A stretch of DNA of 64,000 nt, taken from the NCBI GenBank assembly GCA_963811025.1, contig CAWEPX010000003.1, forward strand, positions 115,190 to 179,189. Direction: 5' to 3'. This document shows positions 17,128 through 22,672 of the stretch, piece after piece. Source of the DNA: an uncultured delta proteobacterium. GTDB taxonomy: Bacteria; Desulfobacterota; Deferrimicrobia; Deferrimicrobiales; Deferrimicrobiaceae. The notes below the pieces were generated by a model that was not told where the DNA came from, did no database searches, and saw only the letters and a program-made list of their open reading frames with translations. The translations under genes were made by a program, and so were the position numbers. Position 1 is the stretch's first letter. Each line of letters begins with the position of its first letter.

Positions 17128-18297
17128 ATGGAAAATCCCGGGTCAGGGATGAAGATCGCTCTCGTCCGGTACCGCTACTCCTCCCACGGGGGCGCGGAGC
17201 GGTATCTCGACATGCTGGCGGCCGGTTTGCAGGCATCGGGGGCACAGGTCCGGGTCCTCTCCTCCTCCTGGGAGGGAGAGAACGTCACGCGATTGCCGTG
17301 GGAGAAGCTCTCCGTGCCTCGTCGTCCTGTCCCTTTGCGCCTGTGGCTGTTCGCCCGGGCGGTACGGTCGTGGGCGAGGGCGCACCCGGACTGGCTTCTC
17401 TTCTCCCTCGAACGGATCCCGGGAGTGCAGGTCTACCGGGCGGGGGACGGCTGCCACGCGGAGTGGCTGATCCGGAAGAGAGCGCTTCGCCCGTTGTCCT
17501 GGAGGCTGGATTCCCTCCGTCCGCTCAACCGGTCCTATCTTCGCCTGGAACGGGAGATGTTCCGCTCCCCGGCCCTGCAAGCCGTGATCGCGAACTCGGA
17601 ACGGGGGAAGGAAGAGATCTCCCGACACTACGGAGTGCCCCGCGGGAAGATCACCGTCGTATACAACGGGGTGGAACTCTCCCGGTTTCCGGAGAAGCGG
17701 AAGGAGGAGGCCCGGCGAATCCTGCGGTGCCGCTACGGTCTCTCGGAGGAGGGCCCCGTTTTCCTGTACGTAGGGTCCGGTTTCGCCCGCAAGGGAGTGG
17801 GAACCCTGGTTCGGGCGGCGGCCCGTCTCGCGGGGAAGGGGCGTTCGTTCCGGGTGATCGTCGGAGGGAAGGGGAATCCCGGTCCGTACCGGGGGATGGC
17901 GGGGGAGGCGCGGGACCGGGTGATCTTTCCCGGCCCGATCCGGGAACCGGAGGATCATTTCCTGGGGGCGGACGCCTTTGTCTTCCCCACGGTGTACGAG
18001 CCCTTCAGCAACGCCTGCCTGGAGGCGATGGCCGCCGGGATTCCGGTCATCACAACCCGGGTGAACGGCGTTTCCGAGATTCTCCGGGACGGGGAATCCG
18101 GCTTCCTCCTGGAGGACCCGATGGACGACTCGGCGTTGGCCGACGGGATGGACGCGCTTTTTTCCGGGGAAACCCGGAGCCGGATGGGACGCGAGGCGCG
18201 GCGGACGGCGGAGAAGCTTCCGGCCGAACGGAACGCCCGGGAGACGTTGCAGGTGCTCGCCCGCGCCTGGAAGGGACGGACCGGGGAAGCGTCCTAG
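17128..18297 (+). CDS. GT4 glycosyltransferase (WaaG-like LPS core glycosyltransferase)
   Basis: MKIALVRYRYSSHGGAERYL...EPFSNACLEAMAAGIPVITT. An alternative start at 17149 is possible. Confidence 0.8.
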   Translation: MENPGSGMKIALVRYRYSSHGGAERYLDMLAAGLQASGAQVRVLSSSWEGENVTRLPWEKLSVPRRPVPLRLWLFARAVRSWARAHPDWLLFSLERIPGVQVYRAGDGCHAEWLIRKRALRPLSWRLDSLRPLNRSYLRLEREMFRSPALQAVIANSERGKEEISRHYGVPRGKITVVYNGVELSRFPEKRKEEARRILRCRYGLSEEGPVFLYVGSGFARKGVGTLVRAAARLAGKGRSFRVIVGGKGNPGPYRGMAGEARDRVIFPGPIREPEDHFLGADAFVFPTVYEPFSNACLEAMAAGIPVITTRVNGVSEILRDGESGFLLEDPMDDSALADGMDALFSGETRSRMGREARRTAEKLPAERNARETLQVLARAWKGRTGEAS

Positions 18298-18317
18298 GGA
18301 TCCCGCGGTTTCTCCGC

Positions 18318-20618
18318 CTATACCAGCAAAACCAGAAGTTCCTCCGCCGCCTCCCGGAGCATCTCCTCGTATTTCGCCAGATTCGGCACCTCGCTGCCGT
18401 CGAGGAACCCCACTGCCCGTCCCTGCTGCTTCGCTGTGCCCCCGGAGGCGAGCACACGGTTGGCGCTCCCGCGGAGTCCCCTCCCCTCGTCCGTCAGCAG
18501 GTACCGGATCTTCGAGCCGGCCCGCAGCGTCACCCCCCGTCCGCACAGCTCGCGGGTAACCGCGGCGGCGACCGTGTCGGTGACGTACTGCTCCGGCGCC
18601 CTGGACAGGCGCCTCGCGACCGCCAGCGCCTCCGGCGGGACGCGCCCTTCCCGCAGTTCCGCCGCTGCGGATTCCACGATCTCCCGCAGGCGAGGCAGCA
18701 TGGTGCGCAGCGCGTCCAGGTTCCCGGCCTCGGCCATCTCCGCAAGCAACGCCTGCTGGAGGGACGCGACGAAGGGGGGCGTATCGGAGCGGCGCATCGC
18801 GATCCCGCGCGCCTTGATCCCGCCGCCCGCGAACGCCCCGACGAACCGGTTCGGGACGGCGACCGACGGGTTTCGCTTCGAGGGAAGGAAGGCGAGCCAC
18901 CGGTAGATCCCTTCCAGGGCGATCGGCATCCCCGTTTCGGCGGTGATGGCCTCCGCCAGCCGCCGGTAGTCTGCCTCCTTGGCGCCGGCGCGCACGACCC
19001 ACACGGCGTCGGTCAGGCCGTGCAGGAAGAAAAACCCCTCGCGCTCGGCGACCTCCTTGGCGCAGAGGAGCTTCTCCCGCCCCCAGGCGGTGACCGCCTC
19101 GTGCGCCTCGATCCGGCCGAACCGGGCGTTCCTGTACCCGAGGAACCCGAAGCAGACGACGAGGATCCACTTGAGCGCCGCCTGCCGCTTCCGGAAGAGG
19201 TCGCGCTCCTCGTCGGTGGCGGCCGTCCTCTGGCGTTCCTTGAGAAGCCGCCGTTTTTCGAGGACGGGGGCCAGCACCCCCGGGATGAGACCCCTGCGGC
19301 GGGCGCACGTGTGGAAGCCGATCTCGGGGACGGGGAGGCCCGGGCGGCAGCAGCGGCAGTTGACCGTCTCCGGGGAGATGTTGTACCGGTCCATGAGCGA
19401 CGGGTACATCGAGGCGAAGTCGAGCTCGCCCGTGTTTTCATGCAGGCCGGGCCGGGGCAGATAGGTGAGTCCCCCCTTGTCGGCCGTGACGAGCCCGGCG
19501 CCGGTCTTGAACTCTTCCGGCTCCCGCTTCTTGTAGGGTACGAGGATTCCCTGCGAAAGCGCCGCCGCGACCTGCATCGCCGAGATGGCGGTCCCCGGCG
19601 ACGAGCGGGCCATGCGCTGCAGCGGGATGCCGGAGAGGCGGCAGAGCTCGATCAGGCCCGGGAGGCCGGTCTCCCCGAAGAGGAACGAGTTGCGGGCGTC
19701 CACGTGCCACCGGCCGGAGAGGGTGTGCGGCGCGGCGCGGAAGATCACCCGCCCGTACGAGAAGTAGGACCGCTCGCGGGCGCGCCGGATGCCGTCTCTT
19801 TCCGGATCCTGCCCTTCCTGCGCGGGGCGTGCCCCTTTCCCGGTCGCCCTCCCCGGCGGTCGGGGGGCGCGACCGAGGGGGAGCGGCATGCGGAGCCGGG
19901 AGGCGAGGGCGAGCATCCGCGGCAGGAGGTAGTCGTCTCCGTACTCCGTGACGAGCAGGTCGGGGTCCGCGCGGGCCAGGAGCCGAAGGAACTCCCGGAG
20001 GAAATCCGTTCCGTTCTCCCAGCAGAGGACGTGGGTGGTGCCGTCGGCCGAGAAAACGAGCGGCTGTGCCCTTCCGTGCGCGGGGTGTCCCGTTCCTTCC
20101 GCCCGGAGGAAGGCGCGGGAGAGCGACGGGAGGGGAGAGACGACGTCCCACGGCGAATCGAGGGCGCGGGCGGAGAGAATCCTTCCGTCTTCCGCGCATT
20201 CCACCTCGGCGAAGGAAAACGGGAAGAGTCCGGTGGCGTACGCGAACTGCTCCTCCGGGGCGATGTCGGCGTTGGCGAGCGCCTCCGCCCCGAACGCGCT
20301 TTCCGCCTTCCGGACGGTCGCCCGAAGGAGGAAAGGCGCCGGGACGGCGAACGTCCACGCCGGGACCGTCCTGCCGGAGAAGAACTCGATCCCTTCGCCT
20401 TTCCGGACGTCGCATCTCCAGCGCCCGGCGGCGGCCCGGACCGCGGTCTCCCGCACGCTCCGGCCCGTCACGGCGAAGGAGGGGCGGAACGGGGCGAACA
20501 GGGTCACGGTGTCGCCGGCGGCCGTCCGGAACCAGACCTCCATCCCGTCCCGCGCGGCGAGGAGGTCGAGCACCCACCCGGTCAGGGAAAGGGCAGAGGA
20601 GTTCTTCAAACGTTTCAT
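18318..20618 (-). CDS. polB: family B DNA polymerase (Pol II-like) with variant motif C
   Basis: Motif A LDFASMYPSLM, motif B KWILVVCFGFLGYRNARFG, motif C HGLTDA in place of YGDTDS, and an exo-II-like YGDDYLLP. 766 aa from ATG 20618. The in-frame upstream extension to 20900 is low-complexity and is rejected as coding. Confidence 0.75.
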   Translation of the reverse strand: MKRLKNSSALSLTGWVLDLLAARDGMEVWFRTAAGDTVTLFAPFRPSFAVTGRSVRETAVRAAAGRWRCDVRKGEGIEFFSGRTVPAWTFAVPAPFLLRATVRKAESAFGAEALANADIAPEEQFAYATGLFPFSFAEVECAEDGRILSARALDSPWDVVSPLPSLSRAFLRAEGTGHPAHGRAQPLVFSADGTTHVLCWENGTDFLREFLRLLARADPDLLVTEYGDDYLLPRMLALASRLRMPLPLGRAPRPPGRATGKGARPAQEGQDPERDGIRRARERSYFSYGRVIFRAAPHTLSGRWHVDARNSFLFGETGLPGLIELCRLSGIPLQRMARSSPGTAISAMQVAAALSQGILVPYKKREPEEFKTGAGLVTADKGGLTYLPRPGLHENTGELDFASMYPSLMDRYNISPETVNCRCCRPGLPVPEIGFHTCARRRGLIPGVLAPVLEKRRLLKERQRTAATDEERDLFRKRQAALKWILVVCFGFLGYRNARFGRIEAHEAVTAWGREKLLCAKEVAEREGFFFLHGLTDAVWVVRAGAKEADYRRLAEAITAETGMPIALEGIYRWLAFLPSKRNPSVAVPNRFVGAFAGGGIKARGIAMRRSDTPPFVASLQQALLAEMAEAGNLDALRTMLPRLREIVESAAAELREGRVPPEALAVARRLSRAPEQYVTDTVAAAVTRELCGRGVTLRAGSKIRYLLTDEGRGLRGSANRVLASGGTAKQQGRAVGFLDGSEVPNLAKYEEMLREAAEELLVLLV

Positions 20619-20952
20619 GTACGCCTTCCGTTGCGTTGAGCGCCCGTTGGTGGAGTGCCGGTAACCGGGCCCCTGGCTCGCGCGGGCTTCCCATCGGCTA
20701 CGCTCGCCGCACCAGCAACCTCGTTCCACAGGCCGCCTCGTGGAACCCTCCCGTTGCCTCAGGTCACCGGCTGCCGGCGCAGCGGCCGCAGGAGGAGGGC
20801 CGGAGTGAGGTAAAGCGCAGCCGTGCAGGTTGACCGCACGGCGAGCCACGAACGAAGGCCCCCTCCGAGGCTGCGGAGCCGTCCCCGGATCCCCGGACAA
20901 GGGGCACGGGCACCCGCGGGGGAGCGGACACGCCGGGCGCAGCCTTCCGGGC

Positions 20953-21237
20953 TCACGGGAGGTTCCCCGAGGAGCCGGCGACCCGTCGCTCGAGCTCCTC
21001 CACGCGGCGCAAAAGCTCCCGTACCGCCCGACGCTCCTCGACGAGGATGCTCATCAGGATCGCCTCGAACGGGACGGCGCGTCCCGAGCAGGTGCAGGCG
21101 GCGGTGTGGTACCTTGCCGCGGCGAACAGTTCGTCGAAGAGTTCGCGGTCCTCGCGTCGCAGCGCGCGCCGGAACGCTTTCCACGACTCCTCTTCGCGGT
21201 ACAGCTCCTGGGTGAAGGGGAGCACCGTGCGGCCCAT
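20953..21237 (-). CDS. hypothetical 94-aa helical protein within the lexA-polB block
   Basis: ORF in the same orientation, 8 nt downstream of the ImuA-like gene. It is rich in charged residues and predicted coiled coil. Confidence 0.4.
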   Translation of the reverse strand: MGRTVLPFTQELYREEESWKAFRRALRREDRELFDELFAAARYHTAACTCSGRAVPFEAILMSILVEERRAVRELLRRVEELERRVAGSSGNLP

Positions 21238-21245
21238 ATTATGCT

Positions 21246-21986
21246 TTACCTTTCAGGGGGACACCCTTGCGATACCGTAAATGAAACGCAAGAGTGTCCC
21301 CCGCCAGACGCCCTCTGCCCTTCCCCTTCCCGGCGCAGGAGGAGGCACGGGTCGGCGATCCGGACGAGGTGGCGGAAGAAGCCGGCCCGGTCGCCCCCCC
21401 TGGGAGCACTTTCCTTTCCCCGCGGCATGTTCCCCGAAGCGGCGGGGACCGCTGCGAAGGGGAAAGCATCCGAAGCAGGGGGGTCCGAGCCGACCAGCAC
21501 TACCCGCGTGCCGCCCGCCGCGAGCCGGCGCAGGGACGAAAGACAGTTCCGGAATACCCGGCACGCCTCCGCGTAGGGAACGTCGGCGTCCGCGAACGTC
21601 TCCGGAAGCCCGAAGACGACCGCGAGCCCCGCCCCGGAGCGGTCGAGGGCGGCCTCAAGCCGCCGCGACAGGAGCGCCTCCATCTGGTGGCACGTGAAGG
21701 CGCGGGAGACGAGGATGCGGGAGAGCGCGGCCCTGCCGCTTCCGCCCAGTGCCCTCTCCGCCTTGCCGATCTCGTACGGGTCGAACCGGTTTCCGCCGTC
21801 CACCGCCACCACGGGCTCCCCGGCCACGAGGGGGCGGGCCAGCGCGCGCAGCGCCAGCCGGTGGGCGCCCGTCCCGAAAAAGCCGGCGAGCTTGCCCGGC
21901 GCGGGGCGCAGGCAAAGGGCGGAGGCGCGCTCGATGTCCGTGGCGGCGGGGGAGACGACCGGCGTATGGGGCGCGCGACCGGGCAA
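21246..21986 (-). CDS. ImuA-like (inactivated RecA/SulA-fold) SOS protein
   Basis: VVAVDGGNRFDPYEIGKAERALGGSGRAALSRILVSRAFTCHQMEALLSRRLEAALDRSGAGLAVVFGLP resembles the ImuA core, which lacks a Walker A motif. It starts 17 nt after the lexA stop. Confidence 0.5.
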   Translation of the reverse strand: MPGRAPHTPVVSPAATDIERASALCLRPAPGKLAGFFGTGAHRLALRALARPLVAGEPVVAVDGGNRFDPYEIGKAERALGGSGRAALSRILVSRAFTCHQMEALLSRRLEAALDRSGAGLAVVFGLPETFADADVPYAEACRVFRNCLSSLRRLAAGGTRVVLVGSDPPASDAFPFAAVPAASGNMPRGKESAPRGGDRAGFFRHLVRIADPCLLLRREGEGQRASGGGHSCVSFTVSQGCPPER

Positions 21987-22003
21987 GGCGGACTCCTTCG
22001 TTC

Positions 22004-22615
22004 CTACAGTTTCCGGAAAATGCCGACGACTTTCCCCGCGATCCGGAAGGACGGGAAGCCGTCCGGCACGTCGAGGGGGGCATAGGCGGGGTTGGCGGGC
22101 TCGAGGCGGACTCCTCCGTTGCGACGGCGGATCCGTTTGACCGTGGCCTCCCCGTCGACGACGGCGACCACGATCTCCCCGTCCTCGGCGGTCTCCTGCG
22201 CCCGTACGAGGACGTAGTCCCCCTCGCAGATGTGCGCCCCTTCCATGCTGTCCCCTTTCACGCGGAGGGAGAAGATCTCCCCCTCGCCGGCCAGCGAAGG
22301 ATCCAGGAGGAGTTCCTCCTCGGCGAGTTCAATCGCCTCCCGGGGGCTTCCGGCGGGCACCCGTCCCAGCACCGGGACGCGCAAGGGGGAAGGAAGCGCC
22401 GCCTCCCCGAGAAACTCGATCCGGCGGGGGGATTTCCGGTGGCGGCGGAGGTACCCCTTTTTTTCAAGCAAATCCATGTAATAAAAGGCGTTTTTCTCCG
22501 CGATCCCGAAACGGTCCGCCACTTCCCTCGCGGTGGGGGCGAAGGAGCGGGAGAGGACGAACTCCCGCAGGAACGTGAGAACCCTGCGCTGTCTGGCGGT
22601 CAGCGGCCTGCCCAT
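22004..22615 (-). CDS. lexA: LexA repressor (S24 peptidase)
   Basis: N-terminal winged HTH (LTARQRRVLTFLREF...) and C-terminal Ser/Lys dyad region (VKGDSMEGAHICEGDYVLV...GKVVGIFRKL). 203 aa. Confidence 0.9.
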   Translation of the reverse strand: MGRPLTARQRRVLTFLREFVLSRSFAPTAREVADRFGIAEKNAFYYMDLLEKKGYLRRHRKSPRRIEFLGEAALPSPLRVPVLGRVPAGSPREAIELAEEELLLDPSLAGEGEIFSLRVKGDSMEGAHICEGDYVLVRAQETAEDGEIVVAVVDGEATVKRIRRRNGGVRLEPANPAYAPLDVPDGFPSFRIAGKVVGIFRKL

Positions 22616-22646
22616 ATGGGTATGCTGACATACCCATATGGGCAGG
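22607..22646. promoter_or_regulatory. 40-bp perfect palindrome with two CCCATATGGG boxes, overlapping the lexA start codon
   Basis: CCTGCCCATATGGGTATG-CTGA-CATACCCATATGGGCAGG; 18-bp arms. The two 10-bp self-palindromic boxes are 22 bp apart centre to centre. Confidence 0.6.
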
Positions 22647-22672
22647 TCAAGGGGGTGTGGGAAAGGGGGTTG

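Follow-up and report, generated by a model that had tools for sequence, protein, structure and literature searches.

The window analysed here is a stretch of 64,000 nucleotides (nt) of contig CAWEPX010000003.1, from an uncultured delta proteobacterium of the family Deferrimicrobiaceae, and the gene under study is polB2, which is predicted to encode a B-family DNA polymerase with the sequence HGLTDA at motif C. On the evidence set out below, we consider it very probable that this polymerase is a PolB2 of the bacterial G2 group, derived from archaea together with two partner genes, and that it serves as the proofreading-free extender of a LexA-controlled mutasome. The feature itself is already known: it is a published hallmark of a known family (Rogozin 2008, Makarova 2014, Kazlauskas 2020, Timinskas 2025), found in a phylum that has already been tabulated for PolB2. 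The coordinates of all features are collected in Table 1.

PolB2 was described together with an inactivated RadA and with arCOG07300, and lexA was found in the PolB2 operon of some bacteria, for example in Leptospirillum ferriphilum (LFML04_0990-0993) (Makarova 2014, PMC4104785). The bacterial subclade G2 is nested in the archaeal B2 group; in G2, exonuclease motif I (Exo I) is unconserved, and motif C holds one conserved Asp and a highly conserved His (Kazlauskas 2020, PMC7544198). The partner proteins were later named iRadA and PPB2, and a PolB2-iRadA-(PPB2)3 complex, joined by the MGRT arm of PPB2, was modelled; in bacteria the gene order was solely iRadA-PPB2-PolB2, with lexA enriched nearby (Timinskas 2025, PMC11791011). 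The supplement of that work lists the PolB2 of Candidatus Deferrimicrobium borealis, with HGLTDAIWV at motif C (LTD) and an operon of type 1a with LexA. Its stretch from motif B to motif C is nearly identical to the window's. The archaeal enzyme Dpo2, whose motif C reads IID, incorporates nucleotides robustly, inserts them with high fidelity where the DNA is undamaged, and has no detectable exonuclease activity; it inserts poorly opposite lesions and extends mismatched or lesion-paired ends efficiently (PMC8764526). Dpo2 is a damage-inducible polymerase that is required for targeted mutagenesis (PMC8764526, PMC11791011).

The motif C substitution is a family signature

The alignment made by phmmer pairs LHGLTDAVW of the window protein with LYIDTDGLY of Thermococcales PolB, which places His533 at the Tyr and Leu535 at the first Asp of the DTD triad and retains the catalytic Asp537. 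The first-pass annotation, made from the letters of the window, had reported these same two replacements and had described motifs A and B as intact; the alignment agrees with it on the former, and both motifs were located where it had seen them. The residues needed for polymerisation are all retained, as Asp400 in motif A, Lys483 in motif B and Asp537 in motif C. Upstream of motif A, D380-K381 corresponds to the D(K/R) motif, a group-specific feature of PolB2/G2 (PMC7544198 and PMC11791011).

A sequence search over 5.8 billion proteins returned more than 1,193 homologs at E <= 1e-10; an exhaustive search of cluster representatives gave 744 clusters at E <= 1e-30. The family alignment consists of 135 diverse representatives with 28-90% identity, and all column counts refer to it. 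Position 535 is never Asp in these sequences (Ile 67, Leu 47, Tyr 11, Asn 4, Met 3, Val 3), which answers the question, put by the first-pass annotation, of whether orthologs share the substitution. By contrast, Asp537 and Asp400 are invariant (135/135), Lys483 is present in 134 and His533 in 127 of the 135, and the D(K/R) motif has its Asp in every sequence and Lys or Arg in 127. A genomic set of 81 polB2 loci, with genomes taken one per species, was drawn from Deferrimicrobiota, Nitrospirota, Terriglobia, Rokubacteria, Binatia, Planctomycetia and Acidimicrobiia. Motif C is recognisable in 77 of these loci and reads H-x-[LIM]-[TV]-D every time, with HGLTDA itself in 39; DFASMYP of motif A is found in 80 of the 81. 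The family-wide pattern of motif C is LH[GA][IL][VT]D[SA][LV]W. The substitutions in motif C are thus a signature that the family conserves and that is under selection.

These counts also bear on the reading of PolB2 as a catalytically dead PolB that acts as a structural or regulatory subunit only, the original interpretation of the group (Rogozin 2008, Makarova 2014), which we regard as improbable. In its favour, motif C lacks its first Asp, the exonuclease site is destroyed, and the constant companion of PolB2, iRadA, is an inactivated enzyme too. However, in 135 sequences down to 28% identity there is little or no variation at Asp400, Asp537, Lys483 and the remaining positions of motifs A and B, a degree of conservation that would be unexpected for a dead active site, and Dpo2 polymerises robustly with IID at motif C (PMC8764526).

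A separate observation concerns the length of some family members. The proteins P0136, P0142, P0189, P0237, P0245, P0246, P0248, P0249 and P0269 have 1210-1306 amino acids, and their match to the query is interrupted at residue 490, inside motif B. The break looks like an intein insertion at a classic PolB site.

The polymerase is of archaeal type

The sole Pfam domain in the window PolB2 is DNA_pol_B (PF00136, 3.6e-29). Its top matches in the PDB by phmmer are archaeal family-B polymerases (Deep Vent, 9e-48), and the PolB2 profile searched against the PDB gives 1e-112 for archaeal PolB versus 1.7e-35 for Pol II. The AlphaFold model has a predicted local distance difference test (pLDDT) score of 94.4, and Foldseek aligns it with the KOD/9N polymerases at a template modelling (TM) score of 0.72. 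In BLASTP, Dpo2 of S. solfataricus, of which a partial sequence was taken from the supplement of PMC11791011, shares 36% identity with the window protein over 222 residues (321-541; E 2e-41); the DK of Dpo2 (253-254), motifs A and B, and LHGIID against LHGLTD are all in register. By these signatures and the published table, the gene is placed as encoding a bacterial PolB2 (G2).

The first-pass annotation had chosen E. coli Pol II and RB69 gp43 as its reference points, whereas the substitutions are the conserved signature that defines the archaea-derived PolB2/G2 family. The NCBIfam models of Pol II score 29-53 bits on the window protein against cut-offs of 570-1435, whereas the archaeal-type models score 328-356 bits; NF004421, the model of E. 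coli Pol II, gives 53.2 bits and does not reach its cut-off of 570. It is accordingly very improbable that the gene encodes a diverged SOS polymerase of the E. coli Pol II type that has lost its proofreading. That explanation would suit a bacterial B-family polymerase under probable LexA control, as is the case for E. coli polB, but the Pol II models fall far under their cut-offs, and both the archaeal-type models and the PDB profile matches to archaeal PolB are far stronger. In addition, Pol II works as one subunit and has all of its exonuclease residues, whereas the window gene has iRadA and PPB2 as partners, and the window protein carries the D(K/R) and His signatures.

The protein begins with MKRLKNSS, and close homologs, for example MKRLKNVPALLTGWVLD, start alike. 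An exact-sequence look-up found no entry for the window PolB2, and the 99%-identical P0001 served in its place. A 99%-identical protein lies on an independent metagenome contig of 38.7 kilobases (kb), and source names point to Candidatus Deferrimicrobiaceae or Deferrimicrobiota. A sequencing or assembly error, or recent decay of the gene in a single genome, had been raised by the first-pass annotation as a way in which the missing Asp might have arisen. Only the unusual motif speaks for it. It is refuted, with a probability close to nil, by an intact open reading frame of 766 codons, by the 99%-identical protein on an independent contig and by the family-wide substitution: 39 other loci have HGLTDA, and Asp stands at the first position in none of the homologs.

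The model also contains a loop insertion of about 20 residues, rich in Pro, Gly and Arg, at residues 253-274 (about 19797-19862), with a pLDDT of about 57. It directly follows the invariant Arg250 and is common only to the closest Deferrimicrobiaceae relatives.

The exonuclease site is predicted to be inactive

A full-size exonuclease-like domain is present in the model of the 766-residue protein, and the Pfam search of the window PolB2 reported no exonuclease-domain family. Two strands are candidates for Exo I: RILSARALD (residues 146-154), from the profile alignment with P. abyssi PolB, and RAFLRAEG (168-175), from the succession of strands along the modelled structure. DxE is absent from both in the window PolB2, and neither set of columns is acidic across the family. 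Because DxE is missing whichever strand is chosen, the conclusion that Exo I has been lost is the same for both.

At Exo II, phmmer pairs VTEYGDDYLLP with ITYNGDSFDLP. The first-pass annotation had described YGDDYLLP as an exo-II-like segment; its position does match YNGDSFDLP, but the residues that matter are gone, with Leu231 in place of the catalytic Asp and Tyr226 in place of the Asn. Column 231 holds Asp in none of the 135 family sequences (0/135). At the position of Exo III, GRWHVD has Arg303 in place of the Tyr, and Asp307 remains; Gly302 and Arg303 are invariant, His305 is found in 132/135 and Asp307 in 130/135. By alignment, the window PolB2 is thus without four of the five catalytic residues of the exonuclease, and Exo II is dead as well as Exo I. 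The first-pass annotation had been right to find no Exo I motif, and its suggestion that the product is exonuclease-deficient is borne out by the replaced catalytic residues and by the Pfam result.

Table 1. Features of the polB2 operon and its surroundings, in window coordinates.
Feature	Position	Strand	Basis
polB2, 766-residue B-family DNA polymerase, bacterial PolB2 (G2) group	18318..20618	minus	Pfam, PDB matches, model, Dpo2 alignment
Motif C, HGLTDA, H533-A538	19005..19022	minus	phmmer alignment and family columns
Motif B, KWILVVCFGFLGYRNARFG, residues 483-501	19116..19172	minus	sequence and family alignment
Motif A, DFASMYPSLM, residues 400-409	19392..19421	minus	sequence and family alignment
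D380-K381, PolB2/G2-specific D(K/R) motif upstream of motif A	19476..19481	minus	family columns, Dpo2 alignment
GRWHVD, residues 302-307, at the Exo III position	19698..19715	minus	phmmer alignment and family columns
Degenerate Exo II, YGDDYLLP, residues 226-233	19920..19943	minus	aligned to Deep Vent PolB
Region with the two candidate Exo I strands	20094..20183	minus	profile alignment, secondary structure of the model, column counts
GC-rich non-coding spacer, 334 nt	20619..20952	minus	no conserved open reading frame
PPB2 (partner of PolB2, arCOG07300-like), 94 residues	20953..21237	minus	MGRT start, DUF8156 on a near-identical locus
iRadA, inactivated RadA/Rad51-like, 246 residues	21246..21986	minus	profile and Foldseek matches
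lexA, 203 residues, first gene of the operon	22004..22615	minus	Pfam LexA_DNA_bind 8.8e-14, Peptidase_S24 1.6e-31
Putative promoter and LexA operator	22608..22650	minus	palindrome, comparison of loci

polB2 closes a lexA-led unit

On the minus strand of the window, lexA, iRadA, PPB2 and polB2 are colinear, with polB2 last. The same unit of four genes on one strand is found on the contigs with 99% (L001) and 70% (L002) identity, where it consists of a LexA of 203 amino acids, a protein without Pfam domain (246 and 223 amino acids, respectively), a DUF8156 protein (94 and 97 amino acids) and the polymerase. Gene order was counted in those 52 related loci whose upstream sequence covers 3 kb or more. 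The colinear order lexA-iRadA-PPB2-polB2 occurs in 44 of them, and 6 more have iRadA-PPB2 with no lexA match, which brings the order iRadA-PPB2-polB2 to 50 of the 52. An enoyl-CoA hydratase gene lies upstream of the operon and glycosyltransferase genes lie downstream, an arrangement that is unchanged in the 70%-identical relative. GC content is 0.71 over the operon (18001-22000), compared with 0.57-0.67 in the flanking 2-kb bins. From this raised GC content, and from primer-independent PolBs (piPolBs) likewise lacking the first Asp of motif C (PMC7544198), it might be proposed that the gene is a piPolB or that it replicates a mobile element, a virus or a casposon. This has next to no probability, given that no mobile-element genes, such as integrase or cas1, were seen, that the flanking genes are conserved as described and that lexA, iRadA and PPB2 accompany polB2 in 44/52 loci.

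The iRadA protein gives weak single-sequence matches to archaeal RadA; its profile matches RadB (7.7e-4) and RadA (3e-3). The core of its model, starting near residue 30, has a pLDDT above 90, and its best Foldseek matches, at about 1e-10, are RAD51 (including chains in entries of paralog complexes), RadA and DMC1. Where Walker A would be expected, the sequence is GFFGTGAHRL, which lacks GK[ST]. The protein thus agrees with the description of iRadA as a Rad51/RadA-type fold without the N-terminal domain and the ATPase residues. At the C terminus (21246-21320), the conserved LLLRREGEG is followed in the window by QRASGGGHSCVSFTVSQGCPPER, compared with GW(R/K)ATLR in most relatives; this divergent, low-confidence tail may stem from a frameshift, or it may just be under no constraint.

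PPB2 starts with MGRTVLPF, and M/V-GRT is present in 70/70 related loci with a readable start. Its length and its start agree with the description of PPB2 as an alpha-helical protein of about 90 amino acids whose N-terminal MGRT arm is conserved. DUF8156 (PF26485) is recorded for the PPB2 product of L001, a nearly identical locus in which tblastn finds the gene at 100% identity. In the Pfam scan of the window PPB2 itself, DUF8156 was not reported, and the only match, to PSD5, was sub-threshold.

PPB2 and polB2 overlap or lie no more than 60 nt apart in most related loci. Among the closest relatives of the window, the spacer varies in length from about 100 to 480 nt, and it is common only to those. 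The window spacer matched no Rfam family, was not repeated elsewhere in the window and showed no excess RNA structure (z = -0.14), and it contained no LexA box, no promoter, no convincing terminator and no conserved open reading frame.

A palindrome upstream of lexA is a probable LexA operator

Directly upstream of lexA, at 22608-22645, lies a perfect palindrome with two 17-nt arms and a 4-nt centre, CTGCCCATATGGGTATG-TCAG-CATACCCATATGGGCAG, whose core GTAT-N6-ATAC occupies 22620-22633. The sequence TTGACC is found at 22645-22650, and a -10-like CAGCAT, at a spacing of 17 nt, falls within the palindrome. Because the palindrome overlaps the ATG of lexA, the arrangement suggests that lexA is leaderless and autoregulated.

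Of 28 Deferrimicrobiota-type loci, 27 have the core GTAT-N6-ATAC at a distance of 15-19 nt upstream of lexA, and it occurs only 32 times in the 380 kb of these loci. It also precedes polB2 by exactly 15 nt in L022 (4968), L023 (4953) and L027, which are loci where polB2 does not directly follow PPB2. PPB2 and polB2 are separated by an insert of 3.3 kb in L023 and of 0.65 kb in L027; in L022, lexA, iRadA and PPB2 were all not found within 5 kb upstream of polB2. L027 has a third core between lexA and iRadA, and the sites listed for this locus are 3353 and 4956. The sequence that follows the box in L027, ATGGGCAACCCGCTTACC, also resembles the 5' end of lexA, which would be consistent with a duplication of the promoter and start of that gene.

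Across loci L002-L045, the consensus of the palindrome is TATGTATR-NTAN-YATACATA (20 bp), and in the Nitrospirota loci boxes of the type GAAC-N4-GTTC are found at the equivalent place. The palindrome TATGTAT-N6-ATACATA is, from this comparison, probably the LexA operator of Deferrimicrobiota. Its presence upstream both of lexA and of polB2 genes that do not directly follow PPB2 supports control of polB2 by LexA. Among the papers covered by the literature search, none links LexA with Deferrimicrobi*.

Proposed role of PolB2

The PolB2 lineage came to bacteria from archaea, along with the genes of its two partners. DNA damage would trigger the self-cleavage of LexA and so derepress the operon; PolB2, one iRadA and a PPB2 trimer would then assemble into a mutasome, in which PolB2 may extend mismatched or lesion-paired primer ends without proofreading, allowing replication to resume at the cost of mutations. 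Since Dpo2 is an active, exonuclease-free extender, SOS-induced translesion extension is, by analogy, the most likely role of the window PolB2. The first-pass annotation had thought a role in damage tolerance fitting, and this idea gains from the place of polB2 as the last gene of a lexA-led operon and from the likeness to Dpo2, which is damage-inducible and needed for targeted mutagenesis. Its two other proposals fare less well by the same analogy: a catalytically attenuated enzyme is at odds with the robust incorporation by Dpo2, whose motif C likewise has a single Asp, and simple low fidelity with the high insertion fidelity of Dpo2 on undamaged DNA (both PMC8764526).

Several points weigh against this proposal. 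Polymerase activity, loss of exonuclease activity and extension are all extrapolated from Sulfolobales enzymes, to which the identity is 36% over residues 321-541. The placement in G2 was made from signatures and a published table, and the mutasome in PMC11791011 is an AlphaFold model rather than a solved structure. Because the 334-nt spacer between PPB2 and polB2 is free of LexA boxes, co-transcription of these two genes is only assumed. When the window PPB2 was compared by BLASTP with the Sulfolobales PPB2 sequence of the 2025 supplement, no similarity was found beyond the MGRT start. Finally, a simple pattern for beta-clamp binding, Q[LIVMA]x[LIVM][FLWY], was unmatched in PolB2, iRadA and PPB2; a clamp-binding motif of PolB2 or iRadA is present in some mutasomes, not all.

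We also see a small chance that the system departs from what has been described. The active site with His533 and a single Asp, together with an exonuclease-like domain that carries GRxHxD, might have chemistry or substrates that differ from those of Dpo2, for example in metal dependence or through a repurposed domain, and the palindrome might be an undescribed LexA operator of Deferrimicrobiota.

If PolB2 is the extender of a LexA-controlled mutasome, a polymerase that looks broken would instead be a conserved, specialised translesion enzyme, and its 'missing' Asp a family signature and no defect, so that a misreading of the gene is averted. The locus offers a clean example of a putative bacterial lexA-iRadA-PPB2-polB2 mutasome, a system on which bacterial work has so far been in silico. 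The operator motif, in turn, would let the SOS regulon of the uncultured phylum Deferrimicrobiota be predicted.

Comparison with known systems

The closest counterparts are the operons of Leptospirillum ferriphilum and Candidatus Deferrimicrobium borealis (MCP2500802.1), which have the same order, lexA-iRadA-PPB2-polB2. Their motif C is also like that of the window, with HGLTDA(I/V)WV in Deferrimicrobium and HGIVDSLWI in Leptospirillum, and bacterial G2 operons agree with the window in the D(K/R) motif, the dead exonuclease and the MGRT start of PPB2. Nothing essential differs between the window and these other bacterial operons; the window has in addition the 334-nt spacer and the loop at residues 253-274.

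Dpo2 of the archaea Sulfolobus islandicus and Saccharolobus solfataricus resembles the window PolB2 in having a single-Asp motif C with His and no exonuclease site, in being encoded alongside iRadA and PPB2, and as a damage-inducible enzyme might by analogy resemble it in its control. The exonuclease domain of Dpo2 is structurally decayed (PMC11791011), whereas the model of the window PolB2 has a complete one. The archaeal genes are ordered PPB2-PolB2-iRadA, with regulation by Orc1-2 and PCNA as the clamp; in the window, the order is iRadA-PPB2-polB2, with lexA.

Among more distant systems, Pol zeta (Rev3) is, like PolB2, a B-family enzyme with an inactive exonuclease that extends mismatched or lesion-paired ends within a multisubunit complex (PMC8764526). 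Unlike the window protein, it keeps both aspartates of motif C, works with the unrelated partners Rev7, Pol31 and Pol32, and belongs to another clade, the Delta-like one. E. coli Pol II (polB) shares with the window gene the description of a bacterial B-family polymerase under SOS control, but is a single subunit of another lineage, with its exonuclease residues (D156, E158, D229, Y331 and D335) and its DTD intact. Pol V (UmuD'2C-RecA) and ImuA-ImuB-DnaE2 are LexA-controlled translesion machines of several proteins, with a RecA-family component among them, an analogy drawn in PMC11791011; they differ from the proposed mutasome of the window in that catalysis is by a Y- or C-family polymerase and the partner is RecA or ImuA, not a protein of the Rad51/RadA type.

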